Part shown: one piece after another, positions 3,001 to 59,315 of the stretch
How the letters are laid out: each line of letters starts with the position of its first letter
How positions within the stretch are numbered: position 1 is the stretch's first letter
Assembly (NCBI GenBank): GCA_000165345.1
Contig: CM000433.1
Coordinates: forward strand, 672,001 to 736,000
Reading direction: 5' to 3'
DNA: 64,000 bases
Translations under genes and position numbers: made by a program
The notes under the pieces: generated by a model
Databases searched by the model: none
What the model saw: only the letters and a program-made list of their open reading frames with translations
What the model was told of the DNA's origin: nothing

Positions 3001-3086
3001 CAAACTATAAGTTACTGGTTATTTGTGATAGCTACATTGGATGTGACCAAGAATTTATGTTTTCTATCAAGACAGTAGAATCTTAA
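1..3086 (+). CDS. BRR2: Brr2/SNRNP200-type spliceosomal RNA helicase, C-terminal part (second cassette with Sec63 domain), 5'-partial. Two exons, 1..1274 and 1668..3086, joined across a GTAAGT...TTTATAG intron (1275..1667).
   Basis: The frame is open from base 1, so the gene continues upstream of the window. The translation aligns along its whole length with the C-terminus of Brr2. Matching stretches include DWITWTLFYRRISK followed, after the intron, by NPTYYGLTGNTSVHISDYLSEYLESLLDSLSEAKCIQV, then MELSQMLVQA, EENWWVIL and YIGCDQEFMFSIKTVES. The last of these matches the human end YMGCDQEYKFSVDVKEA. The donor GTAAGT at 1275 and the acceptor TTTATAG ending at 1667 restore the frame exactly. Confidence 0.8.
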
Positions 3087-25710: not shown

Positions 25711-26481
25711 NNNNTNCNANTCNGAANTNNNTNAANNNTTNTNANCNNANTAANNNTCNNTNNAAANTANNNATNCNANTANCNNNNNANNANATTNTAT
25801 CATNNNNNNNNTTNGNNNAATNNAGANNNNNTNNTCNTNNTNTNTNANNNTATTNTNNANANTTGNGANNNNNTNANANTNTNTNANNANAANNTTNNNN
25901 TANGNNNCANNNTNNTTNNNNATNAACNTNCNTTTTTANNNNTNANNTNTTCNTCTTTATGATTNTTAANNTCNNTTNNNATANNCNNNGNTTNNNNAAN
26001 AANTCANNTTTANNNTNNTNANNNNNTTNNNNTTCTNTCNNATTNTNAATANNTATATNAATTANAACGANNTNNNTNANGNANNACNNNTNTATTNAAN
26101 NNTNAATNTTNNNNNTNATTTNNAATAAGNATAAGANNNNANTTTNNATNTNTNTNAANANNTTNTGGNNNTCCNGATTNATTGTNNTANATNNAATNNA
26201 NNNNANTNANTACANNATTNTNATTNTTNTCCAAANNTNATNNNATTANGCNTATCCAATAAAGCAGATGAACAATTNTGATTNTNTTNGNAATTATNAA
26301 TNCAAANCTANCANNTTNATATATAGANNTAANTNNNGTNNANNATNTNACGAGTCTNATAANTTNGANANCTNNANTNNNTTCAATNNTACTTAANANT
26401 NANAAANATTCNNTNNANNNTCAANNTCTNCAATTATACNTTTANNAGTNNTNTNANTNNTNTCNTGTTTAATAATTNCTC

Positions 26482-26505
<24 letters not shown>
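25711..26505. other. Partially N-masked, low-quality block. Both the midasin gene (minus strand) and the 21579 gene (plus strand) terminate inside it.
   Basis: About half the bases are n, interleaved with called bases. ORFs on both sides become runs of X in translation. Confidence 0.9.
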
Positions 26506-35163
<8,658 letters not shown>

Positions 35164-43500: not shown

Positions 43501-46500
43501 TTTGGTATTTAATCCATTAAATAAAAATCTATCATAGTGTAAGTTAATTACCCAGTATAGAAACTCTTCCCTATTCAAAAATCCATCCTCATCCATATCA
43601 AAGAAGTCAAATATGAGCTTTACTTTAGCTTCATCTGATAAAGATTCACTTGGAGGAAAGATTGGAACTTTGACTATAGCACATTTGTACCAAGTTTCAA
43701 GCTGCAAAAAATCTTCAACTTTATATCCAAACCTTGGACCATACTTAACACCATCTTGTAAAAGAGCTACATCAAATCCTTCCAATAAGCCATCAACCTT
43801 ATCATTTTCAGAAATAACATCCTTAACTGTAGCTAATTTCATTCCATAATACATTCTTAAAGTCTCTTGAACTCCAATAATCTCTCCTTTTGAATTAATC
43901 CCAAATAAGCTTTTAGGTGCAACTGGCAATATCTTCAAATATTCCCATTTGGAACAATATAATGAACAATAATCAGATATTGGAAGCTTTGACCCATAAG
44001 ATTTAATTCTTGTACTATGCTTTAACTCCATTGAACCATCCAAAAAGTCTTTGAGAGCTTGTTTATTATTAGAATTCACACCTAATGATCCCTCTATTCC
44101 ACTTTTATCCCTTGAGATTTGTTGTTTTCCTACATTATTTAATATTGCTTTTGCCCATAAGTATTTGTGATTACTAATCTCACAATGTAATTGTTCAGAA
44201 ACTGCAGCTCTAAGATCATTTGGATCAGCAGAATTTGAATTACTAGTAAATGTTTGATTTGTTGCCTCAAACCAATGTCCTAATGCAATTGAAATCAAAG
44301 ACTGGAGATTTTCAGCAATAAATCTATCAACAATTCCTCTTGAAGAACTAAAGTTATTCCATAAGCTTACTATAACAAATCCCAAAGCCAAAAGCATTAC
44401 CACATAAGGAAGTATATTGTCTGAATTAATTAAAGAACCCAATAAGAACCATAAAAGGAACATTGAAATTGCTAATAATGTTAGAAACATTGAAAATAAT
44501 GTTACAAACATTCCAATTTCTTCAAAAAGTACCAACAATTTTATCCAGTAATACCTCAAATTCCTCCTCCATCTCCAAATTAAACCTTTACCTGTTATTT
44601 CTGAATCTTCATTATTCTCCTCTTGTCTTTTATTATAAGATGAAGGTGATGAACTGGAAGCAATGAATGTAGTATGAATAATTATAAGATGTAAAACTGA
44701 TAATATCAATAAGTATGGAATAGGAAATGGTAAAGACATAAAAAAGTCCCAAGTTGGATTATATACAATATCTGAAAAATAATTTGAACTGATATGAGAA
44801 TGTGGATTTGAAATGGAAAGAGTTGATAAGTAATTATAAACCAGAGTTAGTATGATACAAGTTACTGGGAATATTGAAAGTATTGAAATTTGAAAACCAT
44901 AAATCATTATATTTAGTATTACTGGTAAAATTGAAAATTGAAAAGAATACCAAATTTCATGTATTAATTCTTGTCTTTGTTTTATTTTTGCTATATATAT
45001 TGGAACTAATATTCCTCCATAACCAATATTATATCCTGAAATCCTATCAAGTTTTTCATTATTTACCCCATTAATAATATCTGAATCAATTATTTCAGTT
45101 CCTGATTTCTGTCTTAAATTTCCTTCATCATCTAATTGAGTACTACCAAGGTGTTCAGTTTCCCCTACTTTATTCCAATTTGATATTGTTGTTAATTCAG
45201 TATACTCACAATTACTATTTCTCATAGAATGGATTGATCCATCAATAACTTGGTTATTTGAAACACTATTCTTCAAATTTCGAATTAAATTAGTAGATGA
45301 ACGTTTTAATTGAGCAATTTTTAAAGACATTAAAGCTTTAGACCATCGTTGTTTTGATTTGGATATACTTTTTCTCTCTCTATCCTTGAGTTTTTGTTGT
45401 TTGCTGCTTTCTTTTGTTGTATATATTAGACTTAAAATAGCTTTCCAACTTCTGAACTTGCTTGATCTCCAAGTAGATTTTCTTCTGAAAACTGTTGAAT
45501 AATTTGAATGAACTAATAAACCCGAAGAAATATTAATAGTTTTCGCATCTTCATTTTTTTGGATTGAATTATAATCTTCTTTATTAAAGCAAAATAAGCA
45601 TTTCAAATTTGAGGAAAAGCTACATATTGAATTAACCATTTTTGAAATGGATATACTTCTTAAAAATAGCATTATAGAATCAATTTTGAAGTAACTGACA
45701 ACCTTAATTGTTAAAGGTAAGAATATACTAGTATCCAATATAATTCCATTCTTGAGCAAAAATCTATCAGGAGAAGACGACCACCAATAAGTTGAGTAAT
45801 TTAAAGTACAATTTTCAATAATGTCGATTGATTTTCTTTGAGATTTTAAAAATATACAATTATCCAATTCTTTATCTTCACCTCTTAATATATATCTACT
45901 TCCTGTAGTTATAGCCAATGCTTTAGCACTAATCATAAACTGGCCAGGACAGTAAGTTCCTCTTTGATGAGTTTCTGTAGGAATTGGTTTTCTTATATTT
46001 TCACAAACTCTTAAACTGCTAGGTGAAACCAGGAATCCATACTTATTTAAATCATTATAAGTAACAACTTCCATTTCAAGTCCAAATGTTCTGCAAAATG
46101 TTGCGTACAATAACTCAAATTCACTCAAAGTTGTTAATCTTATGACTTTGAATGAATTAGAAACTGCTACTATTATTTGTTTATTGCCTAATGAAGATCT
46201 TCTTCCTGCTCCTGTACCTGTACCTGTTCCTGACCCTGCAAGGAAATATCCAGAATTATCATGAGTAACTGATCCCTTTGGAACAAAGATTTTTCCTTGA
46301 ATAGTTACATTGGATGGAATATCATCTTTACTTACTGCCATAACTAAATAAACATCCCTTGAAGATGATCTTTGTGAAATAAATGGTACATCGACTGACC
46401 ATGCAAAAGTACCTGTATTTGGAATTGATTTGTCTCCATGCAAAGAAGTTAAATGTGTATCTGTATAATGATCAAAAATATGTAAATGCAACTTTTTAGG

Positions 46501-49500
46501 AATGTAGCTTGAACTATCCTTCTTTAACTCCCTCCAAATCCATGTTAATTGAGTATCACTGCCATTAATAATAATCTTACCAGGGATATCATTAGTGAAT
46601 CTTGGTTTGTTTGAGTTCAAGGCTGAGTTTGAAGAATTTGGAGTCTCTTTGTTCTTTTCCAAGTTGACAGGATCATTGTTTAACGCAGCTCCTCCTGTCT
46701 TTTGTCTATTAATGATTGAATTAGCTGAATGATTATATATCAAACGACCACTATTTTCATCACTTTTTTTTTTCACCATTTCAATATCAATACTTTCTAT
46801 ATTATTTAAAGGATTTGAGTCAATAATAATTTCCTCAGAAAGGTCATGCCTTAAATATTGAACCCAAAATGATCTATCTAAAAGCATTGAAAGCTCTCCC
46901 CATTGTCCTCCCTCTACATAATATAGTTTTACTGAAATATCCACAAACTTGTTAATAGAGACAGTATCGTTTGAAATTGTATCATGAACTTGAATGATAT
47001 CATTTTCTTGAAGTTCTGAATGATAACCCATTTTTGAATGAATTCTTCTGCCATGTACAACATCATCACTATCATCGTGCATGGCTACCAAATCCCCCTC
47101 AAAACTATCCTCATTATTGCTGTCATTAACTAACGATTTCCAAGCTATTTCTATCAATTTGGAGCATTTCACATCTCCATTTGCCACGACTTGGCCACTA
47201 TCTGCCTCTTGTAACTCAAACAATATTCGCTTTTGAGATATTAAACTTTGCTCCAAATATAAGCTGCTTGTTACTGCACATGAATTATTAACTTTCTCAT
47301 CCCTTCCAAATCCCCCAATACTCAATCTACGGCTTTCCCCCTTAGAATTGTGATTTATCTTATTACGAAGAATATAAACATTATTTCCTCCTCCTAATTC
47401 TCTCCCATTCACTGTATTCACATTTTCATTATAGTTACCAAATAAGTTAATATTTTCCAAACAGCCCTCAATTCGAACCTTATCTGTATCGAATGACTTA
47501 TTCTTAAATGTATAACTCTTAAGTGAGGAAAAATCATCCTCTTCTTCTGTAATGCTGGATGCATGCAAACTGCCAAACCTTGCCGCCGAACGTCCCTCCC
47601 CAGCTCCACCTTTACTTGTATAATTCTCAGAAATCTTCCCTGCTCCTCCGCTCACTCCACTTGAAATCTCGCTTGTGACAAACTCATCCGGAAAATCTCT
47701 CACTAATCTTGCTATCAACACATACTTTTTATTCCCTCTCACCTCTGAATACCCACATTCAATACCGGAACTATAGTTTGGCGCGCGCGCCTCTCTGTTA
47801 ATGCTTTGGTTAGAGAAGGACCTTTCGAATCTTTGTTCACCATTTATGTCAGTGACTATTCCATCCATTTTGTGAGCTGAGTTGGTCATTTCTTCCCTTC
47901 CAAATACTCCCATATTGTTGCTTTCGTCATTTATTAAATTATTTTTATCGTCATCATCATTATCCTCGAACCCATAATCAAAAATGTTTTCTTGAGAAAT
48001 GCTATTACGTTTCTTCCTCTTCCCACCAAGAACATCAAAAATTATTATCTCAATATCTCTAAAATAGAACGGAATTCCGAAAGGAGAGTAGTGATCTGTG
48101 TTTTTGTTTATGAATAAATTAAGTGAGGATCTTTTCTTAGGCAAAAACCTCCTTAAGAAAAGTAGTGGGAAATCTACAAACTTCATCTTGTTTCCTGGAA
48201 TAATCTCATTACTCCAATTGCTCTGCTCAATAATATGGCCAGAAGATGATATTCTTAGAATTCTTAATCTATACTTTTGATCAGAAATTAGTTCATATGG
48301 CATTGTCACCTCAAAGATGCATTTATCATTATATTTCATTGGAACAAACAACTCTTGTTGATTTCTTCCCAAATGTGTAGTTAATGACGCCTCGTTTGCT
48401 GGAATATAAAGGAAGAATTCAGAAAGCCCTGACTCATTTGTTACTTTCTCTTCATAACTATTGCTATTATTCCCACTATATTGAGATAAGTTCTCTACCT
48501 GTTTAATATATATACAAAGCTTCTCATTATCACGCCTTTTTTGTCTCTGATTCCATCTCAATAATAATCCAAAGCTTGGCCATTGAATTGTAGAAACCAT
48601 TACAATCCATTCTGCAGCCTCTGATGTCCTAAAATCATGATTTAGACGGTGTGAAGCCGTACTTACTAGTTGCATTTCTCTAATACCTGTTAAAAACCAT
48701 GGGAAAACATAGTAATATAGTACCCACATTGCTGCTGCTGCTACCAAAATACCACATAATATATTCAAAGATAGAGAAACTATGTAACCTTGTAAGTCAT
48801 TTGCTGTTACAAGGTCTTTTAATATTGCATCATTTTCAGCTGTAAATATGTATTGTTCGATTGTCTGATATGGATTATCGGATAAGACTTGTGGATTAGA
48901 TTCAAAATCATCATCTGCTAACATAGAACTTTTTAGAATCTTCTTGGATAGTTTGCTCCAGCCTGGAATTAACCATCCTGGGAATATTATACCCTCTAAA
49001 AATGATATCATTGAGGAAAACAATTTAAATACTTTCTTTAGTTGACTTTTTAATTTCTTCATTACCCATTTTGTCGTTAAAAACAAGTTATCAAATATGC
49101 CAACCTTATTTCTTTCTCCTAATCCCAACCCTGAATTATAAGCCTTAATTTCTTCACCATCATTCTGAGTCCATACAATTACGCTTGGTTGTTGAGCTAT
49201 GCCTACGATTGCTGTATTTATTACACTAAAGATGTTTTCAGTTATTGAAGATTCACAAGCTTTAATTCTACTTGATTTCCCCATATAATTGCCTACATCA
49301 CTTATACTTTTGATATTTGCAATATCTTCATGAATATTTGAGTCCTGGTTAATGTAATAATCTTCACTTATATTTTCATCAATGTAAATTGACTCATGTA
49401 AGTTATTTGAAAGTAATCTTGGTCCATTCTTAATTCCAAATATCTTCTTCAAATCGCTTAATTTACTTTCTTGCTTATTTTTCTCACCATTAGAGGATTT

Positions 49501-51891
49501 TGAATCATCTGGACCAATCATCTTTGATATTCTGCTTGTCATATTTGCCAGTATTCCTCCTTTCCCTTGACCTTCTACTTTATCATCAGAATTTTTATGA
49601 ATTATATTATCAGCTATTCCAATATCCTTACTGATACTTTGATTAGTTATATTTGCATAAATTCCACTAATTCCTCCATTAATATTACCTGTATTAGAAG
49701 GATTATCATCAACATTGATTACATCTAGATCTTCCAAATCTGAATGACTCACTGGAACCATACACCTTAATCCAAGAATATGAATAAATAGAGTGTATAT
49801 CCTTGGCATTAAAAGTCCTCCTGATAATAAAACCAAAGCATATGGATCTCGAATAAAAGCTCTTGAAGATACTGCCTTCCAAGTTCCCCTAGGATATTCT
49901 CTATTTCCTAAAACATTAATATAAAGTACCCATGGACTTGCAAGATCCTCTTGAAGCCATTTTGAAAACCCATTAAATCTTGATTTTGAAAACGCAAGTA
50001 AATGTGGATCTTTCCATTGGTGTCTTCCTGCCCAAGTAATAAGTTCATCCGATATGTTATTAAAATCTGAACTTGATTCAAAGTTTGAATAAGCATTTAT
50101 ATATACTGGTGGAATACTTCCTTGAATGTTAATTCTTGTATTAATTGAAGAACCTGAAAGTTTATTATCCAAGAATGATGAATCTGGATTCAGAGTTGCA
50201 ACAACTGATGCAGTTTTATAATACCCATGACCATCTAAATCATTTGATTTGCTTTCAAGCTTGACTTTAACATGCTCAGCTCTAAAAACTGCTAATTCTG
50301 CAATTCTGACTGGCATAGTAACAACAATTGGTGTTCTACTATTAATATATATTGGAGCTCCTCTACTTTCTATAAACACATTCCTACGACCTGAATCTTG
50401 GAGATTTGGGAGATCTATAGAAGCCCAACCATCTGAAATTGTGAGTGAAATATTTGGTGAATATACATCTTTTAAATCAAAAGTCCCATGTAATGCTTCC
50501 AAGTGAAATAGTGATTTAGCCTTGATCGGAATCGATGACGAAACTCTCATATATGTTGAAGATGGCACAAACTTGACAGAAAGTTCGTCAAACTGGAAGT
50601 TATTTGCCAAGAAAAAGTTTATTGAACATTGAAAATAATCACCAGTATTAGTTTGGTGTAATTTTATTGATAAATTTGAATCATTATTAAAATTCCAAGG
50701 TCTAGGACTTGAATCACAGTATTCTTTATAATCCTTCCAAGAAATATTCTTTATATTATAATCACTATAAGTATCCCATGGAAGAATATATCTTTTCAAT
50801 ATCCAGAAGAAAGTTCCGTGAGAGCATATATATTCGAACTTATCTTTCTTCCTAGATGGTATACTGTACCTTCCAGAACTACCATAGTACATATGTGATT
50901 TGGAAAATAATCTCCAAGATCTAACTTTAATATAGCTCAGATCACTAGTTGAATTAAGGAATTGAATATGGCAATGTTTAACATCCAAAGTTACATTTAG
51001 TGGTCTATTTATTGAATTTTCAAAAATATCAGAGTCTTGTTTAATATTGAATAAAGGAAAAAGCTTCTTTAATAAGTTACTTTTACCTATTAATCCCATA
51101 TCATTGTTACCAGTTCTTGATACCACTGTTGGATTCTTTGATCTCAGTAATGAAGGAACTAATCCTTCAGTTTGTTCATTCTTTGACTCAAAAATACTTC
51201 CCAAAGGGTATAATGGAATAATATCATTAACAATATACTCATCTAGAAATATTGAAAAAGTATAAACCATTGAAATTAAAAAGAATATCCAAAGAAATAA
51301 AATTGGACGTACATTCAATTTTTGTAATGTGATTACTGGAATTCCAAAAGATACCGGAAATTCCCTTATTACTAAAAATTCGGAGCTTGGTAAACTTAGT
51401 ATTTCTCTCTTTTGAATACGTCTCGATTTTCCTCTGCTCTTTAATAACATCAATAATTCACGACTATTATCTTCATATATTTCGTCTTCAGAATCCAATT
51501 CTTCAGATTCTGTTTCGTCCTCACATTCTTCAAGGCCATCATCTAACTCATCATCAGAATTCTCTTCTGCTTCATTATAATCTCTTTCTTTCAGATCCCC
51601 TCCTTTTTGGTCAGCAGATAATCCATATTTATTAAATACCCTGCTTTCATAATTCTCACTATTCATTAACTTTCCATTTATCAGCTCCCTTTCCACATCT
51701 AAATAGTCACTATTAATAATTTGGTGAAATTTTGTGATAATACAATCATCATATTCTTCTTGCTCTAGAACATGATACTTTTCTGGTCTTACTGTTGCAC
51801 TTTCTATATATTCATCTGGGTACTTTTCATATTGTTCTAAAGCTCTTTCAGAATGAGGTCTTTGACAAATTCTAGAATCATAATCCACCAT
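37549..51891 (-). CDS. Giant multi-pass membrane protein of 4780 aa with EF-hand-like calcium-binding motifs. It is otherwise hypothetical.
   Basis: This is a single 14.3-kb ORF. Several hydrophobic segments are predicted: PILFLWIFFLISMVYTFSIFL, LNILCGILVAAAAMWVLYYYVFPWFL, FQFSILPVILNIMIYGFQISILSIFPVTCIILTLVY, LLVLFEEIGMFVTLFSMFLTLLAISMFLLWFLLGSLI, ILPYVVMLLALGFVIVSLW and, near the C-terminus, LIIMATSASLLLFCIFVGIAIKTF. EF-hand-like loops are FDMDEDGFLNREEF and DLMDLNQDKSLDLQELLDGF. There are Gly-rich and N/S-rich low-complexity tracts. Confidence 0.7.
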   Translation of the reverse strand: MVDYDSRICQRPHSERALEQYEKYPDEYIESATVRPEKYHVLEQEEYDDCIITKFHQIINSDYLDVERELINGKLMNSENYESRVFNKYGLSADQKGGDLKERDYNEAEENSDDELDDGLEECEDETESEELDSEDEIYEDNSRELLMLLKSRGKSRRIQKREILSLPSSEFLVIREFPVSFGIPVITLQKLNVRPILFLWIFFLISMVYTFSIFLDEYIVNDIIPLYPLGSIFESKNEQTEGLVPSLLRSKNPTVVSRTGNNDMGLIGKSNLLKKLFPLFNIKQDSDIFENSINRPLNVTLDVKHCHIQFLNSTSDLSYIKVRSWRLFSKSHMYYGSSGRYSIPSRKKDKFEYICSHGTFFWILKRYILPWDTYSDYNIKNISWKDYKEYCDSSPRPWNFNNDSNLSIKLHQTNTGDYFQCSINFFLANNFQFDELSVKFVPSSTYMRVSSSIPIKAKSLFHLEALHGTFDLKDVYSPNISLTISDGWASIDLPNLQDSGRRNVFIESRGAPIYINSRTPIVVTMPVRIAELAVFRAEHVKVKLESKSNDLDGHGYYKTASVVATLNPDSSFLDNKLSGSSINTRINIQGSIPPVYINAYSNFESSSDFNNISDELITWAGRHQWKDPHLLAFSKSRFNGFSKWLQEDLASPWVLYINVLGNREYPRGTWKAVSSRAFIRDPYALVLLSGGLLMPRIYTLFIHILGLRCMVPVSHSDLEDLDVINVDDNPSNTGNINGGISGIYANITNQSISKDIGIADNIIHKNSDDKVEGQGKGGILANMTSRISKMIGPDDSKSSNGEKNKQESKLSDLKKIFGIKNGPRLLSNNLHESIYIDENISEDYYINQDSNIHEDIANIKSISDVGNYMGKSSRIKACESSITENIFSVINTAIVGIAQQPSVIVWTQNDGEEIKAYNSGLGLGERNKVGIFDNLFLTTKWVMKKLKSQLKKVFKLFSSMISFLEGIIFPGWLIPGWSKLSKKILKSSMLADDDFESNPQVLSDNPYQTIEQYIFTAENDAILKDLVTANDLQGYIVSLSLNILCGILVAAAAMWVLYYYVFPWFLTGIREMQLVSTASHRLNHDFRTSEAAEWIVMVSTIQWPSFGLLLRWNQRQKRRDNEKLCIYIKQVENLSQYSGNNSNSYEEKVTNESGLSEFFLYIPANEASLTTHLGRNQQELFVPMKYNDKCIFEVTMPYELISDQKYRLRILRISSSGHIIEQSNWSNEIIPGNKMKFVDFPLLFLRRFLPKKRSSLNLFINKNTDHYSPFGIPFYFRDIEIIIFDVLGGKRKKRNSISQENIFDYGFEDNDDDDKNNLINDESNNMGVFGREEMTNSAHKMDGIVTDINGEQRFERSFSNQSINREARAPNYSSGIECGYSEVRGNKKYVLIARLVRDFPDEFVTSEISSGVSGGAGKISENYTSKGGAGEGRSAARFGSLHASSITEEEDDFSSLKSYTFKNKSFDTDKVRIEGCLENINLFGNYNENVNTVNGRELGGGNNVYILRNKINHNSKGESRRLSIGGFGRDEKVNNSCAVTSSLYLEQSLISQKRILFELQEADSGQVVANGDVKCSKLIEIAWKSLVNDSNNEDSFEGDLVAMHDDSDDVVHGRRIHSKMGYHSELQENDIIQVHDTISNDTVSINKFVDISVKLYYVEGGQWGELSMLLDRSFWVQYLRHDLSEEIIIDSNPLNNIESIDIEMVKKKSDENSGRLIYNHSANSIINRQKTGGAALNNDPVNLEKNKETPNSSNSALNSNKPRFTNDIPGKIIINGSDTQLTWIWRELKKDSSSYIPKKLHLHIFDHYTDTHLTSLHGDKSIPNTGTFAWSVDVPFISQRSSSRDVYLVMAVSKDDIPSNVTIQGKIFVPKGSVTHDNSGYFLAGSGTGTGTGAGRRSSLGNKQIIVAVSNSFKVIRLTTLSEFELLYATFCRTFGLEMEVVTYNDLNKYGFLVSPSSLRVCENIRKPIPTETHQRGTYCPGQFMISAKALAITTGSRYILRGEDKELDNCIFLKSQRKSIDIIENCTLNYSTYWWSSSPDRFLLKNGIILDTSIFLPLTIKVVSYFKIDSIMLFLRSISISKMVNSICSFSSNLKCLFCFNKEDYNSIQKNEDAKTINISSGLLVHSNYSTVFRRKSTWRSSKFRSWKAILSLIYTTKESSKQQKLKDRERKSISKSKQRWSKALMSLKIAQLKRSSTNLIRNLKNSVSNNQVIDGSIHSMRNSNCEYTELTTISNWNKVGETEHLGSTQLDDEGNLRQKSGTEIIDSDIINGVNNEKLDRISGYNIGYGGILVPIYIAKIKQRQELIHEIWYSFQFSILPVILNIMIYGFQISILSIFPVTCIILTLVYNYLSTLSISNPHSHISSNYFSDIVYNPTWDFFMSLPFPIPYLLILSVLHLIIIHTTFIASSSSPSSYNKRQEENNEDSEITGKGLIWRWRRNLRYYWIKLLVLFEEIGMFVTLFSMFLTLLAISMFLLWFLLGSLINSDNILPYVVMLLALGFVIVSLWNNFSSSRGIVDRFIAENLQSLISIALGHWFEATNQTFTSNSNSADPNDLRAAVSEQLHCEISNHKYLWAKAILNNVGKQQISRDKSGIEGSLGVNSNNKQALKDFLDGSMELKHSTRIKSYGSKLPISDYCSLYCSKWEYLKILPVAPKSLFGINSKGEIIGVQETLRMYYGMKLATVKDVISENDKVDGLLEGFDVALLQDGVKYGPRFGYKVEDFLQLETWYKCAIVKVPIFPPSESLSDEAKVKLIFDFFDMDEDGFLNREEFLYWVINLHYDRFLFNGLNTKYQDIIDYFNSICNTNVDDQQGFSVEDIIILYSLYPGNLDSDYEKVIPIRGGTSENEGEMIMSQAHDQFIIDRGVIDDKGAQENGGIDEEEYDDEFSEDIFNASSCHTIKTGFKPMIDQKGYLWIDLLSSSFENSKKNTGNHFHFGKVVNDSDIGVITGDLNNLKLCSLNHYGRSSSSTFEGVGDSFGGFSIRGKSSNNISNNIRGGVGNSSKHTKFQLLREMNVQKLKYIFTFATRNLRTPDIDTALRDIHSLAYKVFDAQVALLIPIFGRRNVLTFGNSHSLSNDDLDIINDGNIISNSTFHDEYSFSGSLSMFEKQGNNLNIIGRTGSSNRNFKTSSSTWLLNQSNSNLNNGSSSSFINAASSSSMIANPAGGGGGGIGGTTTNINGNGLKDNGIGGDSACIKSMTSQNKNSDNDTTKFLQLMRILHNEIRQDIWILFNHIIGRLFDKSRVKKGADHFLDIVYPKLIRRKAARIVNIFYGPSLNELSLSIHEYFVSAPPKTAAQVVDALKEYRVENQRNVKDTLEIISLSQGNASLQFQVSLITKALYALSVLKDTDVDMLTVDIPWKRSHSLITEEVLILPRNHQGMKVILGAIQTVLRRANSITSSRSGGVLVSDFSNSNQNISSVGKNQKNNANIIHQREVKTSVEVFHSALVDSKMSEINGILIGGGATGNGEGDGGAGGVTNSSSSNNTIEFSETTLEQVIQVIVSKYLWMDAFIFLIRLCGINLSTDRLPSVTYDNSVSLTNLNYIEERNLQHVKSVFTKLSNGSGFLPVELSDLALQTLTERCLNFSGLLVSMHFLGLISNNMLLMGSGNPLERLSELGLGPNINVFHIHKSTNFDNIISNSINGGIIGGQGSLLSNQSNIFGTAMNDKVHGRGGDLGIGNLDDIGFSLQGLAGGGERGDLPFSGTTLGGGVTILEDGFLNKMIPERSSNYGELLDWTLLSNVKGIPEDVVKDFHKIAVLRCGFIGRSQLHEYIKDHKRLYIHKTTDLSYLESVNKSSGGQKGSNKGEIEQGKLLLFSRSQSNNFNQLNNNNIQDTNEDEGVTSNNKKMINKNQDDYFEKMTGSSNKMVDFNISFDIFDTTLTTLGFSSHKLQSYILWLLLCLNLNMGTVRPFVNASLARDFIIMVYLQPIYKNNGEEEYLSGRRMSNVGCNNPNNSTNNNVNKGSNSNENSVNNTTYGGTGLFRGVGMTISGSNLISGTFKSSLYEVTNQNKQHFDAQDVHSYRGYFTHEMLRRFLALAKITIPNSGVESIWKSLPKDPLNITSFIVPYRDYGKNMEREAEEDEQMNSRGVLEDGMNKYLRARGNRKGEEHYMYEDEDYERDEYNSEQQLMNRGGGLIGIHNKGFEHYEAFGEGIAEKDKIGGESKYKLKPGYQIEGELGSSSKKKFSKRMSIGGRFRRDKKIGNNLMNQFEDSMENMESYIRKSKIRNNLKESVHLRILMDPTGMDPMEGVVINIDSVRRLLPKKLMTGLWPEAIKVVLNIGLHLEKPESSIIEATSKCLEYSNRYGLIRPGDMVSILAALSKEGLSFDLLCELLNNMRIQLPVREVKRMFDLMDLNQDKSLDLQELLDGFEVLFGLFLPQLVHDHVGLSYERQGLIIMATSASLLLFCIFVGIAIKTFEGMRNELSTAVQSVLAIVGAVGLQTGASQDSKEIEERMKERIEDIMGGDIETSMSQIELGEDSQYSSNSENILVLREKKSSSRIISKNKNYNKGGGTGGTPNGLIIITEKGPILKIGYSLPSKFRSDVNDPRPCITFYSQDQVNLEPIFYCSKGIINQQHNIFIEDDVSKRWCIKPALPKYTGLTFSTETGIISGTIPAHTQNKIGYIRRVSSTLENDERHSSLIRNSIINMNEGANQTMNNSNSSDINTGMNKSQKKLLNNIKNLSNESDNNLGSLGKAGGGTGIEIDMIAKELLKNNNNREDLVMPYGGQLVQMNRKTFTIYCIISELDEKVVFKTRVTFQIVPRTRTQKS

Positions 51892-53105: not shown

Positions 53106-56100
53106 TCAACAGAATAGACCAATTGAATCAACAAAACTGTCAATATTTTGGCTAAATAATTTATCTCCAACAGTCTCGCAAGGAAAATCTTGAACAAGAT
53201 TTGAAGGAGCTAGTATATAAGCTGAAAATGGAGACATATTGAGAAAAACTGTTTGCTTGAGAGATTTTGTATTGACAAATCTATATGGAGATTCGTGTTG
53301 GAAATTGTTTGGAAATTTATTATTAACAATAGAATTAATATTTGAAGGCTCTGAGTTAGGGCTAAAAATCTTGAATCCTTGCTCAGATTTGATAGAAGTG
53401 GAACAAAAGCTGCCCGTGATATGATATTTTTTGTCTCCTCCAAATCTCTCATCTTGTGTGTCAATTATTAGACTCTGGGGAAGTTCACTTGAAATCCCAA
53501 ATCCATAATCGTTGTAATACTTTTCGCTGAAATTGAAAACAAAAACACAATTATTTCTCTCAATTACCATAACTTTATCCAATTCGTGGCACAATACTAC
53601 ATTAATATTAGATGATGAATTATACAAACTATCAGTTGTTAAGATCTTTAATGAATCTTTTGAATGCTTACCAAGGCTTTTTGCTCTAGAATAGATGTTT
53701 TGAATAGACTTTGAGCCTTCTTTTCCATTGCTTTGGGGGGTTGAGTCCAAATAAATGACAGATTCATTATCTACTGGGCTTGTATTATCCCCTGAGCTCT
53801 CTTCCAATTTTTTAATAATTGCTTCTTTCTTCGCTAAAACCCTCTTAGAAAATGTTGAAGCTGGGGAAATCTCTGAAGGTATTAATGAAGTAGAGGTTCC
53901 TTTAGTTAAAGGTGAAATTGATTTGGAGTAACAAGCTGAAGTAAGCCCATTCTTACCTAACTCTCCCTCACTACCACATGTTAACGGTGAAAGATAATTA
54001 TAATTGACTCCATAATCCTGAATGTTATTCTTGGCTATCCAGCTTAAAAATTTCTCAAGACGAATCAATAGAGTATTAAAGAATTCTAAATGCTTGAATT
54101 TCAAGTTCTTGTTATCTGCCAAATCCCATTTACAACACATTTTGCTATTATCCATGTTATTATTTGGTCTAGGAAGATCAAAAGAATCAGGATTTCCAAA
54201 TTCGGAGCCCATACTTTGAAAGACACCATTTTTTGCGAAAGCCATGGTTGTTAATATAAGTAGCTTTAACTGTTTAAGAGCAAAAACCGACTTGTCAAAA
54301 CCGTCAAATACCATCATATGATGATGAAGAGCATTTTCTCCAAAGGCTTGAAGAATGATGGGTGAATTTGGCTTAAGTATTAAGCTTGGAGTAACATCCA
54401 AAACATTGCACTGTTCAAAATACAAGAAACTAGTTGCTCGTGCAATTGAGTCCCATGAAAATGAATAAGCTGCTTTTACTCTACCTCTGGACCCCATCCA
54501 TCTAGAATGATCAAAGTTTTTCAATATCTCACAGCAACCCCAAGCAATGCTATCCTTACATGGCTCAACCAAGTACCCATCTACGTTCGGAGTTAAGAAA
54601 TCCCTTGGGCCGCCACTAGTAGTAGCAACAACAGGCTTTCCAGCTGTCCATCCTTCCAATACAACAATTCCAAATGGTTCATTTCTTGATGGTACTACTA
54701 CTGCGTCACAAGCCTTGTAAAGTCTGATTACATCATCTCCTGATTTCTTTCCAACAAATCTGATGGAATTGTAAATACCTAACTGATGAGATCTACGCAC
54801 AATCTCATCTTTTTGGTGTCCATCTCCAACTATGATAAATTTCGTATCATTACGATATTTCAAAATGCCAGGTACTGCTTCAATAAGTAAGTCAACTCCT
54901 TTTTGGAGAGCCATTCTTGCAACGCAAAGAAATGTTGGTTCCAAAGGTCCTATGCCGTATTGCCTTTTAACTTCGCCAGCATCATCCATTGCTACACTAT
55001 CAAAGGTCTTGCAATTAATTCCATTAAAAATTACTTTAATTTTGTTTCTATTTATTCCAAATAGTCTACATACTTCCTCTGCAAACACTCCACTTACACA
55101 AATTAGTCGGTCTGCAGTATGGGAGCCTTCTCTCTCTATATCAGAAATTCTACCGCTCTGTCCTCCATATGACTGATTTCCACATCTGCCGTATTCAGTA
55201 GAATGCAATGTTAGGATAGTAGTCCTATTATTATTTCCAATTCTTCTTAAACTTGTTAATACAGGAGCAGCTAACCAATCATGGCAATGACAAATATTGA
55301 ATCGATACCCATTCTTTACATTATTAAGCATTGGATGATCAGGTACCTTTGTTAGCCCATCTTCCCATCTCTGCATATAATATACAAACGAATTACACAT
55401 ATTTATAATTTCAGTAACAAAATCAGAATTCAACTGGAAAGGGCATTCATGGTATAATACTCCATCGTGAACTTTGATTATATATGCTGATGTAGTTGCC
55501 CTTGTGAATAGATGAACCTCGTGGCCAAGTCTTACAAGGCTTGCAGACAACTGTGAAACATGAGGTGAAACCCCACCAACTGAGTGAGTATAAAGACTTT
55601 CCCAACTGAACATTGCAATTCTGAGAGGATTCTGTGTCACCGTCTTCATCTCCAGAGATTCTATCCCATATAAGTTTCTGGAAACAAACTCAACTGTATG
55701 CAAATCAGATTCTCCCATATCCGAGTAACTATTATTATTGCCATTATCATTATCTCCTCTACTGGATATGTTTTGCTTCTCTCTGTTTTTGTATAAAATC
55801 CGAATCTTCTTATTGGAATTCCTCATTTTATCCTCATGGGGAAGCAACTCGTCAATTATATCTTTTTTAATATTTAAACTGGATGGGCTTTTAAGGATGA
55901 TGTCTTGCAAGGAGCTACAAATTGAAGTATTCCAAATATAGTCAAAGCCCATACCTCCATATTCCAAAGGTACTGCAAGCTCTGAACAAGCCTTGTCTTT
56001 GTTTTCTCTTAAGAGAAGCTCATTTGCTATTGTAATAGCAAATGGCTTAATTGTGTGGATTGTATCATTAATCAAAGCCAACACTGAGGAGATATAGGAG

Positions 56101-59100
56101 TATTTTTCTTGTTCTTCTGATAGATCTGGAACAGTGAATCTGAAGCCATCAATACCAAGATGAGTCAATAAATAGTGGAGAGAAGAGAATATTTGAGCTA
56201 ACATTGGAATGTAACCCAGATTGAGGCGACTGTAACTTTTATTGTAAGCAAATAGAGGTGAAATTACATCTGGAGTATGTTTGAAAAAGCTTGGATTGAA
56301 TGTATTCAAATTAGTAAGCATAAATGACTCATACAGATCAACAACAGAGTCATCCAAAAATAACTCATCAATTCTAACTATATTAGTACCAGAATTACCA
56401 TTTCCAAATATAAATGATCCCTCTCTGCTCATATTTCCGTTGCTTGCTTCGCTTCCTGAGCACATATTTATCTCATCAATGTCTATAATGTCTTGTAGAT
56501 TGCTCAAATTGTTGTTAACCTCCCTATCACATGGCTGAAGCATTGAGTTAGAATTAGTAATATCTGCAAATGTTAAGTTAAAGTCGACTATCACGGCAAT
56601 TCCTCTTGAATGGCAGTCATCCATTAAGTCCTTAAACTCTTCCAAGGTACCGTATTTGCTATAAGGAGTGAAATAATTGAATGGATACTGACTGTTGCTA
56701 AATGACTGATAATGCTCTAGTAAACCAGTCAACAGTAAACAATTATATCCTCCTCGAGATATCCTTGGTAGAACCTTTTCTTTAAAGCTTGCAAAAGTTC
56801 CAAATTCTCCCTTGGAAGAAAATGCAATATTTGCTTCATATATATACAAAGGTGATTGCCTAAAATTTGTCACAAGTCCTTTGACAATACTTGTAACTGG
56901 TATCTGATATTCCTTTCCATTTGAATCAAAGATATTATCTTTATTTTGCTTTAAATTTCCACCTAACCTTGGCTTTAAAACACATCTTGGAAGAGGGTAC
57001 TTGAGATCTCTATTTCTCAGGCCATCGTGCTCTTTTTGGCTTTCCAAGTAAAAATTACAATTCATTAAAGCATTCTCAGTACTATCTTTGATTCCTGAAG
57101 TAGTCAAAGATCTTGAATAAGAAAGTAATCTGTAAGTCTCCAGTTCTTGAGAAGAAACTGCTCCCATACTATTGTTGACTTCTGCCATATGACCTTCTGT
57201 GAATCCATCAGCCTTAGAAGTAACAATCCTAATTTTGAATGAAATAGAATTAGCTTTGGGACTACAACTTAAAAAACTTTCTAGCTTATTTTCATCCAAA
57301 ATTATTGAATACACCCTACTCTTCATAAAATGTGGAATTGAAGGGTAATTTTCATATATCTCTTGGTTCATTGAACAAATATTTTCTGTTTCAAGTTGCA
57401 TTGGGTGAGAAGTCTTATTCCAATCATTAAAATCGCCAACTAAGTAAATATTCATGGTTCTTAAGCCTCCCTTAATACTTCTTCTTCTTCTATTAAGTCC
57501 ATAGCAAAATACCTGGTCTGTAAGTTCATCCCCTATAAACTCCCTAATTAACCAAGCCCTATTGCCATTTCCCAATTCTGACTTCCTTTTCAGCTCTACT
57601 ACGCCCATACTCTTGTAAACTTCACAAAATTTTGTGAACCCTTCCCTACACCAAATCCTCTCATTCTCCATAGTTTTCTCATCCTTATCGGTATTTGTTT
57701 GTGCATGCGCATGTAATAAAGCAAAGCATTGCATGCAATTCCTATCAGAACATGTGGCGCCGCCCCACACTGACTTTGCCAACTTGGCCTTGAGCGTGTG
57801 CGTGTCGAACATCATTTCTCTGCACTCATAAAACTCTTCTTCCTTGACAGATTCCTGAATGACAGGTATTTCTTGGTTGTCTGTCAACTTTTCATTCTGG
57901 TTATTGTTACTATTAATTGTTGAGTTCGAGTACAATAAATTTTTCTTTCTAATATTCGATATTGCAACAGAGTCAGAAGCGCCAACTACCGCAGACTCCC
58001 AAAATCTTAAATTTGACCATTCTGAAACCAAAAGAGGATCTTCTTCAAATCCAATCACTTCTTCATCCTCAAATATCTCGATATCATCGATCACTTCCAA
58101 TTCTTTATTCTCATCTAGTCCCTCAAGAGTTGAACCTTTCTTTGATAGAGTTAAGTTCTCCGTGCTTGAATTAATAGAGGTTGTTACTGAGTCCAGGTCC
58201 GTGGATGAAAACCCATTTGCTGAGTCAACCAATTTGCAAGAGTCTGTTGAATAGTAATTCAATGTTGTAGCTATCGTTGATTTGCCATCCAAGTTTTCCC
58301 CTCCCATCATATTTTCTTTAATCTCTAGGTCTCTCTCAGAGTCTTCTGTTCTGAAAATGTTTAAATCCTCAAAATTCTCTAGTGAATTATAAATCAACTT
58401 CTGTGTCATAAACTCTGTTCTAGCTTCTCCAAGAGCCAAATCTTTTAAGGTTGAAATGTAACTGCTCCAATTATATGTACTCGTTACCATTGCATAATCT
58501 GTTGGATTCGTAAATATGTGAATCATATAAGCATCTTTCTTAGAGTTTGATAATGATAATTTCTTCAATTCATCCTCAAATCTTGCTTGTCCATCCAATC
58601 TATTCTCAATGCTAAAACTAAAAACAGTTAGGAATGATTCTTCCATCTTATTCAACCGAAAATCTTCATATAAAGTCTCAACATTATTTATAAGCTCTGA
58701 AATATTGCTAACTTCACTAAATTTCACCATAAAAGCTAAAGAAGACAAATCAAAACTTCGAATCTTCTCATTACTTTCTTTCAAAAATGTATTGCAAAAT
58801 GCCAATCCCAGGTTATTTCGTGAATTCTCTATATCTCTTCTCCTCTTTAAGGTTGTCATCATCCACTTTTCATTGCTAATTTCGCTCTTATTTCCTCCAT
58901 TCATATTCAAAATCGAGTTTGAGTGAGAAAAGTAATTCTGTAAAATCTCTCTCTCATTCTTGTCCACAATTACTTCAAACATCTTATTTCTAAAAACACC
59001 ATCACTATAATTAAAAAATTCAAGCATACATAGATTTCTTGGATCCTTATTATCTTCCAAAACCATCCAATAACTCCCTTTTACCATTCTTGAAAATTCA

Positions 59101-59315
59101 TTCAGTTGAAATATCAGTCCTAGCTTTTCTTTATCGTTTTCACATCTTATTAGAGTCATACTTAGTGGATAAGAGTCCAGAATGCAACATTCCCCTTCTC
59201 TATTACTACTTATCTCCTCATTTTCGTGGCATGTTAGAATATCTAGAGCCTCCTCTAGTTCCAGTCGCATTCTGTTTACATTTTTATCCAACTCAAGCTC
59301 CTCCCTATCACTCAT
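53106..59315 (-). CDS. Large alpha-glucan (starch/amylopectin) synthase fusion of 2069 aa. Domain order is an N-terminal region of about 600 aa of unknown function, a CBM48-like module, a GH13 alpha-amylase-family domain, a GT5 glycogen/starch-synthase catalytic domain, and an S/N-rich C-terminal tail.
   Basis: The CBM48 signature is MNIYLVGDFNDWNKTSHPM. GH13 is marked by YNCLLLTGLLEHY...FTPYSKYGTLEEFKDLMDDCHSRGIAVIVDFNLTF and GIDGFRFTVPDLS (region II, GFRxD-like). GT5 is marked by LRIAMFSWESLYTHSVGGVSPHVSQLSASLVRLGHEVHLFTR, ILTLHSTEYGRCGN, ICVSGVFAEE and C-terminally GKPVVATTSGGPRDFLTPNVDGYLVEP (GT-B fold). Confidence 0.8.
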   Translation of the reverse strand: MSDREELELDKNVNRMRLELEEALDILTCHENEEISSNREGECCILDSYPLSMTLIRCENDKEKLGLIFQLNEFSRMVKGSYWMVLEDNKDPRNLCMLEFFNYSDGVFRNKMFEVIVDKNEREILQNYFSHSNSILNMNGGNKSEISNEKWMMTTLKRRRDIENSRNNLGLAFCNTFLKESNEKIRSFDLSSLAFMVKFSEVSNISELINNVETLYEDFRLNKMEESFLTVFSFSIENRLDGQARFEDELKKLSLSNSKKDAYMIHIFTNPTDYAMVTSTYNWSSYISTLKDLALGEARTEFMTQKLIYNSLENFEDLNIFRTEDSERDLEIKENMMGGENLDGKSTIATTLNYYSTDSCKLVDSANGFSSTDLDSVTTSINSSTENLTLSKKGSTLEGLDENKELEVIDDIEIFEDEEVIGFEEDPLLVSEWSNLRFWESAVVGASDSVAISNIRKKNLLYSNSTINSNNNQNEKLTDNQEIPVIQESVKEEEFYECREMMFDTHTLKAKLAKSVWGGATCSDRNCMQCFALLHAHAQTNTDKDEKTMENERIWCREGFTKFCEVYKSMGVVELKRKSELGNGNRAWLIREFIGDELTDQVFCYGLNRRRRSIKGGLRTMNIYLVGDFNDWNKTSHPMQLETENICSMNQEIYENYPSIPHFMKSRVYSIILDENKLESFLSCSPKANSISFKIRIVTSKADGFTEGHMAEVNNSMGAVSSQELETYRLLSYSRSLTTSGIKDSTENALMNCNFYLESQKEHDGLRNRDLKYPLPRCVLKPRLGGNLKQNKDNIFDSNGKEYQIPVTSIVKGLVTNFRQSPLYIYEANIAFSSKGEFGTFASFKEKVLPRISRGGYNCLLLTGLLEHYQSFSNSQYPFNYFTPYSKYGTLEEFKDLMDDCHSRGIAVIVDFNLTFADITNSNSMLQPCDREVNNNLSNLQDIIDIDEINMCSGSEASNGNMSREGSFIFGNGNSGTNIVRIDELFLDDSVVDLYESFMLTNLNTFNPSFFKHTPDVISPLFAYNKSYSRLNLGYIPMLAQIFSSLHYLLTHLGIDGFRFTVPDLSEEQEKYSYISSVLALINDTIHTIKPFAITIANELLLRENKDKACSELAVPLEYGGMGFDYIWNTSICSSLQDIILKSPSSLNIKKDIIDELLPHEDKMRNSNKKIRILYKNREKQNISSRGDNDNGNNNSYSDMGESDLHTVEFVSRNLYGIESLEMKTVTQNPLRIAMFSWESLYTHSVGGVSPHVSQLSASLVRLGHEVHLFTRATTSAYIIKVHDGVLYHECPFQLNSDFVTEIINMCNSFVYYMQRWEDGLTKVPDHPMLNNVKNGYRFNICHCHDWLAAPVLTSLRRIGNNNRTTILTLHSTEYGRCGNQSYGGQSGRISDIEREGSHTADRLICVSGVFAEEVCRLFGINRNKIKVIFNGINCKTFDSVAMDDAGEVKRQYGIGPLEPTFLCVARMALQKGVDLLIEAVPGILKYRNDTKFIIVGDGHQKDEIVRRSHQLGIYNSIRFVGKKSGDDVIRLYKACDAVVVPSRNEPFGIVVLEGWTAGKPVVATTSGGPRDFLTPNVDGYLVEPCKDSIAWGCCEILKNFDHSRWMGSRGRVKAAYSFSWDSIARATSFLYFEQCNVLDVTPSLILKPNSPIILQAFGENALHHHMMVFDGFDKSVFALKQLKLLILTTMAFAKNGVFQSMGSEFGNPDSFDLPRPNNNMDNSKMCCKWDLADNKNLKFKHLEFFNTLLIRLEKFLSWIAKNNIQDYGVNYNYLSPLTCGSEGELGKNGLTSACYSKSISPLTKGTSTSLIPSEISPASTFSKRVLAKKEAIIKKLEESSGDNTSPVDNESVIYLDSTPQSNGKEGSKSIQNIYSRAKSLGKHSKDSLKILTTDSLYNSSSNINVVLCHELDKVMVIERNNCVFVFNFSEKYYNDYGFGISSELPQSLIIDTQDERFGGDKKYHITGSFCSTSIKSEQGFKIFSPNSEPSNINSIVNNKFPNNFQHESPYRFVNTKSLKQTVFLNMSPFSAYILAPSNLVQDFPCETVGDKLFSQNIDSFVDSIGLFC

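Follow-up and report, generated by a model that had tools for sequence, protein, structure and literature searches.

A GT4-like glycosyltransferase nested in a predicted pseudo-branching-enzyme shell in Cryptosporidium and other Myzozoa

Which enzyme builds the amylopectin of Cryptosporidium? This parasite relies on glycolysis and fuels its oocysts and sporozoites from a store of amylopectin. The literature we searched speaks simply of a "glycogen synthase" for Cryptosporidium (PMC10774378), and the store-building enzyme is not pinned down there. The question is raised again by one gene in a 64,000-nucleotide stretch of Cryptosporidium DNA, referred to below as the window (GenBank assembly GCA_000165345.1, contig CM000433.1, forward-strand positions 672,001 to 736,000). 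An initial annotation had described the 2069-residue product of this gene as a linear fusion of a CBM48 module, a GH13 domain with a possibly degenerate active site and a GT5 starch synthase. Our analyses revealed a different arrangement, in which a glycosyltransferase (GT) is inserted within the GH13 barrel of an otherwise complete eukaryotic-type branching enzyme, the catalytic residues of which have been replaced. Databases already list the gene, though not its anatomy and likely role, and no description of the nested design or of the family-wide loss of the GH13 nucleophile was found in the literature searched.

Anatomy of the chimera

The gene is a single uninterrupted open reading frame (ORF) from ATG to stop, as initially annotated. 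Three NCBI Cryptosporidium assemblies (GCA_015245375.1, which we take to be C. parvum IOWA-ATCC, and two others) and many sequencing runs encode an identical protein. It is not a chance ORF, because it is conserved in eight or more species of Cryptosporidium, with full-length orthologues of 49–98% identity in C. tyzzeri, chipmunk genotype I, C. ubiquitum, C. canis, C. felis, C. xiaoi and C. ryanae. In public records the product and its orthologues are named "LPS glycosyltransferase (of cyanobacterial origin)", "Glycosyl transferase, family 1" or "hypothetical protein". The three strings quoted by the initial annotation were all located in the protein: VDFNLTF at residues 910–916, GIDGFRFTVPD at 1054–1064 and HSVGGV at 1244–1249. 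The parts of the chimera, from the N-terminus onward, are as follows (window coordinates).

53106..59315, minus strand: whole ORF, 2069 residues plus stop codon
57840..59315, minus strand: N-terminal extension, residues 1–492, of low conservation (36% identical to C. ryanae)
57471..57839, minus strand: helical segment ahead of CBM48, residues 493–615 (EEFYECRE...WCREGFTKFCEVYKSMGV...AWLIREFIG), aligning with the Vitrella, T. gondii and gregarine orthologues
57045..57470, minus strand: CBM48-like β-sandwich, residues 616–757, with a YLVGDFNDWN motif
55647..56870, minus strand: N-terminal part of the GH13 barrel (β1 to β7), residues 816–1223, with a predicted disordered insert at residues ~929–1034
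54381..55646, minus strand: inserted GT-B glycosyltransferase, GT4-like, residues 1224–1645
54036..54380, minus strand: C-terminal part of the GH13 barrel (α7, β8, α8), residues 1646–1760
53616..54035, minus strand: low-complexity linker, residues 1761–1900 (12% identity to C. ryanae)
53196..53615, minus strand: C-terminal β-sandwich of the Alpha-amylase_C type, residues 1901–2040, interrupted by a short insert

The GT-B domain, of ~420 residues, lies inside the GH13 barrel directly after region IV on strand β7. It is an insertion and not an appended module because ~115 residues of barrel (α7, β8 and α8) and the C-terminal β-sandwich come after it. The surrounding shell has the complete scaffold of a branching enzyme of the eukaryotic (GH13_8-like) type: the helical segment comes first, then a CBM48-like module, the (β/α)8 barrel and the C-domain. 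When residues 1201–1645 were deleted, the remaining construct was colinear with the solved eukaryotic branching enzymes of Candida glabrata (7p43), rice (BEI, 3amk) and human (GBE1, 5clt), with E-values of 5e-30 to 1e-27 in phmmer searches of the PDB. The aligned pieces were CBM48, β1–β3, region III, the "GNEFGHPEWxDFPR" region of β8 and the C-domain, and the matches to bacterial GlgB structures were at least 17 orders of magnitude worse.

The same break was evident in pairwise and multiple alignments. In BLASTP against a canonical branching enzyme, residues 623–642, 819–1126, 1674–1764 and 1897–1960 of the chimera corresponded to residues 7–25, 103–343, 426–513 and 507–571 of that enzyme, respectively, the last of these falling in its C-domain (E 3e-9). 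The orthologue of Vitrella brassicaformis is broken exactly, reading as branching enzyme 1–400 (49% identity), GT and branching enzyme 395–614 (47% identity). In an alignment of 17 sequences the GT sits between "ESHDQAIV" (GH13 region IV, strand β7) and "GDKTLAFWLMD". Finally, an AlphaFold2 (AF2) model of residues 621–1820, built on 39 relatives, has β7, a complete GT-B domain and then α7-β8-α8; its mean predicted local distance difference test score (pLDDT) was 72.5 and its predicted TM-score 0.69, with pLDDT mostly >90 in the GT. These four lines of evidence replace the linear CBM48-GH13-GT5 order of the initial annotation with a nested one. The canonical enzyme used for BLASTP was the first half of P0016, a metagenomic protein of 1938 residues from a Logan contig of 6.3 kb. 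It has a canonical GH13_8 branching enzyme with complete catalytic residues upstream of a pseudo-branching-enzyme and GT unit. Two genes in tandem may have been translated here as a single polypeptide, or the protein may truly combine a brancher with a synthase.

Pfam searches of the window protein returned only the GT and a sub-threshold scrap of Alpha-amylase. CBM_48 (PF02922) had no Pfam match at E<=1, and the piece colinear with the CBM48 of branching enzymes had a domain E of just 0.13; the orthologous segments match CBM_48 in T. gondii (3e-13) and Porospora (9e-6), and the AF2 model of the window protein has a β-sandwich there. Significant CBM_48, Alpha-amylase and Alpha-amylase_C matches were all obtained for the T. 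gondii orthologue. Beyond the GT, FGENALHHH corresponds to the GDKSLAFWLM of branching enzymes, GSEFGNPDSFDLPR to GNEFGHPEWIDFPR, and CCKWDLADNKNLKF to RRRWDL..LRY. FGENALHHH was considered as a possible region IV; alignment with Vitrella and the canonical enzyme assigned region IV to IESLEM, ahead of the GT.

Initially, the first ~600 residues had been set aside as having no known function. Of these, ~120 (residues ~493–615) are the normal helical segment of a eukaryotic branching enzyme; as branching-enzyme homology starts at about residue 493, the extension proper is 1–492 and not 1–600. The extension has no hydrophobic, signal-like start, in agreement with the absence of a signal peptide annotated earlier. 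Its only Pfam matches were sub-threshold (a CovS-like HAMP, 0.0024), and a weak, below-threshold ABM/ferredoxin-like match (E 0.0036) was confined to the N-terminus of the Vitrella orthologue; we attach no weight to either. Several non-Cryptosporidium N-termini (P0011, P0013, P0014, P0017, P0012 and P0018) carry a conserved motif, "(R/Q)x(Y/H)I(S/T)(K/R)xPSS(A/S)FL", that could be a regulatory or phosphorylation site and is absent from residues 1–30 of the window ORF and from Cryptosporidium. Two Asn/Ser-rich low-complexity inserts are Cryptosporidium-specific, predicted to be disordered and fast-evolving: residues 929–1034 (window ~56214–56531), between β3 and α3, and residues 1761–1900, before the C-domain.

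The GH13 active site and the inserted glycosyltransferase

Comparison with the four canonical GH13 regions revealed substitutions in each of them.

Region I: canonical DLVHAH, here DFNLTF in VIVDFNLTF (residues 908–916); Asp911 retained, Leu914 and Phe916 in place of the two His
Region II: canonical GFRFD, here GFRFT; Thr1061 replaces the nucleophile Asp
Region III: canonical (I/V)(A/G)ED, here IANE in ITIANE; Asn1098 replaces the acid/base Glu
Region IV: canonical ESHDQ, here ESLEM in IESLEM; Leu1221 replaces His and Glu1222 replaces Asp

The degeneracy of regions I and II had been recognized correctly in the initial annotation. Our domain alignment did not place the canonical Asp, Glu and Asp in the barrel: all three are replaced (T1061, N1098 and E1222), and regions III and IV are degenerate as well. 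A Glu (E1099) does occur one position past Asn1098. Within Cryptosporidium, T1061, N1098, L1221 and E1222 vary little or not at all, and Thr1061 is the same in every orthologue. In active GH13 members the nucleophile Asp is invariant, and mutants in which it is changed to Glu are essentially inactive. Across Myzozoa this Asp was absent from all 16 aligned chimeras, the residue in its place being T, E, V, L, Q or P, and none of the 16 had kept the region IV His; the loss is evidently an old one. With the catalytic triad (Asp, Glu and Asp) and two active-site His gone, the shell is predicted to be unable to cleave or branch α-glucan. It descends from GH13_8 branching enzymes, but no catalytic test of membership placed it among them, and we regard it as a pseudo-enzyme relative of that family.

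The shell has nevertheless been retained. Identity to the C. ryanae orthologue was 88% in the GT, 57% and 70% in the two barrel halves, 44% in CBM48 and 53% in the C-domain, and 12–24% in the linkers. This is the signature of purifying selection on the GH13 shell, as would be expected of a pseudo-enzyme with a retained non-catalytic job. Of the roles that such a shell could have, the glucan-binding scaffold suggested in the initial annotation, in place of a hydrolase, is the most plausible.

The inserted GT is the best-conserved segment of the protein and is probably active, judging by its motifs. These comprise the glycine loop HSVGGV (residues 1244–1249), HCHDW (His1345), HSTEYGRCGN (residues 1371–1380), R1467 and K1472 in ARMALQKG, and an E-x7-E motif, E1546...E1554, in SRNEPFGIVVLEG. 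Across 39 chimeric and stand-alone relatives, R1467, K1472, E1554, H1345, H1371 and G1247-G1248 were invariant or near-invariant. E1546, the first Glu of the E-x7-E motif, is present here and variable in some distant members.

Both profile and predicted fold place this GT closer to GT4 enzymes, specifically MshA, sucrose-phosphate synthase (SPS), GlgM and BshA, than to the classical GT5 enzymes with which it had been grouped. The Pfam matches were Glycos_transf_1 (2.5e-38), Glyco_transf_4 (2.3e-20) and Glyco_transf_5 (7e-15; 55.8 bits, above the cutoff). When the GT family profile was compared with solved structures, the best PDB match was MshA (7e-54), with SPS at 2.5e-52 and GlgM (6tvp) at 7e-52, i.e., about 1e-52 to 1e-54 on the GT4 side; the glycogen synthase of Pyrococcus abyssi came next at 4e-38, and a classical GT5 enzyme, rice granule-bound starch synthase I, was far behind at 4e-17. 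Foldseek target TM-scores were 0.84–0.88 for GlgM and BshA, 0.73 for the Pyrococcus synthase and 0.62–0.68 for GT5 synthases. The best NCBIfam model was TIGR02149 (glgA_Coryne, now GlgM), at E 4.6e-38 and 131.4 bits, which is far below its cutoff of 302.4 bits. Nor is HSVGGV a degenerate KTGGL, as had been thought: a Lys-less loop, "(A/S)VGG(V/L)", occurs in all stand-alone and chimeric relatives and the Lys of K-x-G-G-L in none, so that its absence is the norm of this GT family.

Relatives and a candidate role in amylopectin synthesis

An exhaustive HMMER search with residues 621–1820 returned 361 representatives below 1e-30. The best matches outside Cryptosporidium were 42–53% identical, 1100–1900 residues long and of the same nested design. 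They include the chromerid Vitrella brassicaformis, the gregarines Porospora, Selenidium and Lankesteria, Rhytidocystis, Digyalum and the dinoflagellates Symbiodinium and Effrenium; coccidia also have the nested design, in the Toxoplasma gondii orthologue. The family members that we looked up were amylopectin- or starch-storing Myzozoa, and none of these representatives was from Plasmodium or piroplasms. To our knowledge, Plasmodium and piroplasms do not store amylopectin. In the glaucophyte Gloeochaete the GT occurs alone (47% identity), and no starch-binding modules were found in the algal or metagenomic stand-alone GTs with extensions that we examined.

Stand-alone homologues of ~390 residues are also found in prokaryotes, with 40–51% identity to the Cryptosporidium GT over the full domain (~390–400 residues). 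They share its motif columns: the WES...VGG loop, HxHDW, HSTExGR, R...QKG and the E-x7-E in PSRNEPFG...LE. Their hosts are bacteria (Phycisphaerae, Planctomycetia, Omnitrophota, Bdellovibrionota, Latescibacterota and Nitrospirota) and archaea (Methanosarcinales, ANME-1 and Syntrophoarchaeum). The "cyanobacterial origin" in the public label is not supported by similarity, because cyanobacterial homologues are just ~31% identical, versus 45–51% for those of Bdellovibrionota, Phycisphaerae and Omnitrophota and 47% for the glaucophyte.

We surveyed the gene neighborhoods of 14 prokaryotic loci (designated here by L numbers). Seven of these had a GH57 gene, for a branching enzyme or otherwise, beside the GT or a few genes away. 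A GH57 branching enzyme (Glyco_hydro_57 plus BE_C) adjoined or was near the GT at L011, L016, L007, L015 and L010, with further GH57 genes at L011, L021 and L010. Other neighbors were an α-glucan phosphorylase (L007 and L021), an amylo-α-1,6-glucosidase (GDE_C; L026), a GalT-like DUF4921 protein (L032) and phosphofructokinase (L011). A second synthase was near the GT at three loci, of the GT3 glycogen synthase type at L032 and L033 and GT5-like at L007. No glucan-metabolism neighbors were seen at L019 and L004. At two loci, from an Omnitrophota and a Planctomycetia genome, a DUF4912 gene (L011, 9497–10480; L016, 9396–10370) stands in the order GT4, DUF4912, GH57 branching enzyme, GH57, which suggests that DUF4912 is a further uncharacterized component of the α-glucan pathway. 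A 2024 review notes that the role of GT4 genes nested in archaeal glycogen clusters "requires clarification", and speculates that, where neither GT3 nor GT5 is found, the archaeal GT4 is a glycogen synthase yet to be characterized (PMC11046441). In prokaryotes, the tie between this GT family and branching enzymes is one of gene neighborhood; the eukaryotic chimera ties the GT physically to a branching-enzyme fold.

We hypothesize that the chimera is an active α-glucosyltransferase that is tethered to α-glucan by its pseudo-branching-enzyme and takes part in amylopectin synthesis, a reading of the sequence data that we consider probable, although well short of certain. The pseudo-branching-enzyme (CBM48, barrel surface and C-domain) would have kept its α-glucan binding and would anchor the protein on nascent amylopectin. 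As both GT termini emerge between β7 and α7, on the face that once carried catalysis, the GT would occupy the place where the branching enzyme formerly gripped its chain, and the dead shell could present a chain end to it. The GT would then move glucose from a nucleotide sugar to the glucan end, thereby making or extending α-1,4 chains. The donor would probably be UDP-glucose, since coccidian floridean starch is described as UDP-glucose-based in reviews (PMC4851813, PMC9241709). A "starch synthase" identity with use of UDP-glucose is plausible. In contrast to the eukaryotic-type shell, two branching enzymes reported from C. parvum and T. gondii are bacterial in type (Huang 2004, PMC545779), those of C. 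parvum being presumably active; TgSBE2 (TGME49_209960) may accordingly be another gene, and we do not equate the T. gondii orthologue of the chimera (XP_002369745.1) with it.

Several points weigh against this proposal. T. gondii has a separate 330-kDa GT5 starch synthase (XP_018638322.1), the deletion of which abolishes amylopectin detectable by periodic acid-Schiff staining (PMC8205521), even though an orthologue of the chimera is encoded in the same genome. The chimera is therefore unable by itself to make the bulk of T. gondii amylopectin, and it is not simply "the" apicomplexan starch synthase. The closest solved relatives of the GT (MshA, SPS, GlgM and BshA) use small acceptors and not polymers, and its top NCBIfam match is the GlgM-type model, far under the cutoff. 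Several prokaryotic clusters have a further synthase next to the GT, so its role there may not overlap with that of a synthase and may not be one of elongation. Lastly, that the degenerate CBM48 and barrel bind glucan is inferred, and that the GT acceptor site lies beside the old branching-enzyme groove is a proposal.

Much of this evidence would also fit a GT that makes a small primer or donor, whether as a GlgM-like α-maltose-1-phosphate synthase, a maltooligosaccharide former or a self-glucosylating initiator, with the shell delivering the product to nascent granules. The chimera would then supply the initiation factor that is still missing from amylopectin synthesis in apicomplexans. We know of no bona fide glycogenin in apicomplexans. 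The glycogenin-like gene of Toxoplasma is reported to encode the Skp1 glycosyltransferase Gat1 (bioRxiv 10.1101/401828), which leaves priming unexplained. Together with the starch synthase deletion phenotype and the second synthase in prokaryotic clusters, this keeps a primer role alive, and the standing of GlgM (6tvp) among the top profile and fold matches (target TM-score 0.84) is in keeping with it, as is the use of small acceptors by the other close relatives. However, the identity of the GT to GlgM is just ~21–23%, the TIGR02149 score is less than half of its cutoff, and a GlgE-type maltosyltransferase was not seen in the prokaryotic clusters examined. In addition, L011, L016 and L010 have this GT as the sole GT beside a GH57 branching enzyme, which fits a polymerizing synthase better. 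Overall, we consider a primer role unlikely, but worth keeping in view.

A GT without any role in storage glucan is less probable still. GT4 enzymes are functionally very diverse, and the acceptor of the domain could be a lipid, as the "LPS glycosyltransferase" label would have it, or else a protein or a different glycan, the branching-enzyme-like shell being a structural relic or a binder of some other ligand. The nearest prokaryotic homologue (L019, 51% identity) adjoins a GT2 and an inositol monophosphatase and has no glycogen genes beside it, and MshA, the top structural profile match, uses an inositol-phosphate acceptor. Against this, prokaryotic homologues are found repeatedly beside GH57 branching enzymes, phosphorylases and glycogen synthases; the GT is fused with precisely a glucan-handling scaffold, which has been kept under selection throughout Myzozoa; and the family members looked up were restricted to starch-storing lineages.

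We think very improbable a classical starch synthase of the GT5 family in series with CBM48 and GH13 modules, orthologous to the UDP-glucose starch synthases of coccidia and red algae. The above-cutoff Glyco_transf_5 match speaks for it. A C. muris protein (XP_002139398.1), possibly an orthologue of the chimera, has been taken as the Cryptosporidium starch synthase and did not group with other apicomplexan starch synthases (Lyu et al. 2021). GT4 models far outscore GT5, though, the Foldseek scores likewise favor GT4, and the GT is nested in the barrel and not appended. Moreover, T. gondii has both its 330-kDa synthase and a separate chimera orthologue, which points to paralogous systems.

Least probable of all is a bifunctional synthase-brancher whose shell still branches or transglycosylates by way of non-canonical residues (such as a Glu nucleophile in most members outside Cryptosporidium, or the shifted E1099). 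In its favor, the nucleophile is replaced by Glu in many relatives, which also have an acidic residue (Asp or Glu) in region IV; region I and the Glu of region III are intact in Vitrella; and the GFRF Arg is conserved in 15 of the 16 aligned chimeras (Gln in one). Against it, in Cryptosporidium the nucleophile is Thr, the acid/base is Asn and the His of regions I and IV are lost, Asp-to-Glu mutants of GH13 enzymes are essentially inactive as a matter of general enzymology, the 420-residue insert lies between β7 and α7, in a loop from which subsite -1 is normally built, and Cryptosporidium already has the two branching enzymes noted above.

A tethered α-glucosyltransferase thus remains the reading that we favor. 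A GT4-type enzyme on a pseudo-branching-enzyme scaffold, specific to the parasite, would be a defined candidate for the amylopectin-building step, and its GT part has no obvious human counterpart. The chimera family also serves as a "Rosetta stone", connecting branching enzymes and α-glucan metabolism with a GT4 family of prokaryotes that is itself uncharacterized. In addition, it shows something rarely seen: a TIM barrel that received an entire enzyme domain on its catalytic face and lost catalysis, yet has stayed under selection across Myzozoa. A bolder proposal, which we hold tentatively and regard as possible rather than probable, is that the GT4-like domain adds a third class to the storage-glucan synthases of eukaryotes, next to GT3 and GT5, acting either as the sole amylopectin synthase of Cryptosporidium or as a glycogenin-independent primer, with the gutted branching enzyme as its acceptor-holding platform. 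If true, a function would also be assigned to the unexplained GT4 genes in the glycogen clusters of archaea and of bacteria of the Planctomycetes-Verrucomicrobia-Chlamydiae group.

Neighboring genes and comparison with known systems

The window is AT-rich (GC 19–37%), and the genes surrounding the chimera are ordinary eukaryotic housekeeping genes. They include the following.

3327–5627, minus strand: NOP9-like PUF protein
7213–9333, plus strand: Plus-3 domain protein
17328–19094, plus strand: carboxylesterase
21579–26396, plus strand: cullin-like protein of 1605 residues
36337–37521, plus strand: HVSL/USB1-like protein

Since no glucan-metabolism neighbor was found among the surrounding genes of the window, the locus gives no contextual clue to function. 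Two giant ORFs lie on the minus strand near the chimera: one of 4780 residues directly beside it (37549–51891), for which the record has only a faint EF-hand match, and one of 2893 residues (26482–35163). At the start of the window, two adjoining plus-strand ORFs encode pieces of a Brr2/SNRNP200-type helicase in order, the DEAD and winged-helix domains (24–1298) and then the Sec63 Brl domain (1734–3086); they look like one gene, truncated where the window begins and interrupted by an intron or a change of frame.

Among known systems, the eukaryotic GH13_8 branching enzymes (human GBE1, rice BEI and the C. glabrata enzyme 7p43) resemble the shell most closely, in domain order and fold and in a common set of motifs: a YEAH-like β1, GFRF, GFDY, GxEFGxPxxxDxPR and RWDL. 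In contrast to them, the chimera has its catalytic Asp, Glu and Asp and active-site His replaced, a 420-residue GT-B insert after β7, long low-complexity inserts and an N-terminal extension of ~490 residues. Fungal α-1,3-glucan synthases (Ags1/Mok1) also combine a GH13-like domain, thought to handle the glucan product, with a synthase, in their case a GT5 together with a membrane domain. They differ from the chimera in being serial, GT5-based membrane proteins that make a wall polymer, with a GH13 domain thought to be competent as a transglycosylase. GlgM (6tvp) is, like the GT, a GT4 enzyme, and acts in α-glucan synthesis; the model built on its family is the one that scores best for the GT, but at 131 versus 302 bits and ~21–23% identity, and its partner GlgE was not identified in the clusters examined.

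The GT4s of prokaryotic glycogen clusters, from Planctomycetota, Omnitrophota, Methanosarcinales and ANME-1, are far closer to the GT (40–51% identity, same motifs), and such GT4s have been discussed for Methanoculleus and Picrophilus (Chem Rev 2024, PMC11046441). These proteins stand alone, and their branching partner is the neighboring GH57 gene, which is presumably active, whereas the chimera has its own host scaffold. Because the activity of the prokaryotic GT4s is itself uncharacterized, the comparison transfers context and not function. The GlgA-GlgB fusion of Criblamydiaceae and Waddliaceae is similar to the chimera in that a synthase-type GT is joined to a branching-enzyme domain reported to be inactive (PMC11046441). 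That fusion is an end-to-end joining of a GT5 GlgA and a bacterial GH13 GlgB, and has been interpreted as a defective leftover from a pathway in decay. The chimera differs in having a GT4-like domain that is nested in a branching enzyme of eukaryotic type, and in having been conserved under selection across a eukaryotic supergroup.

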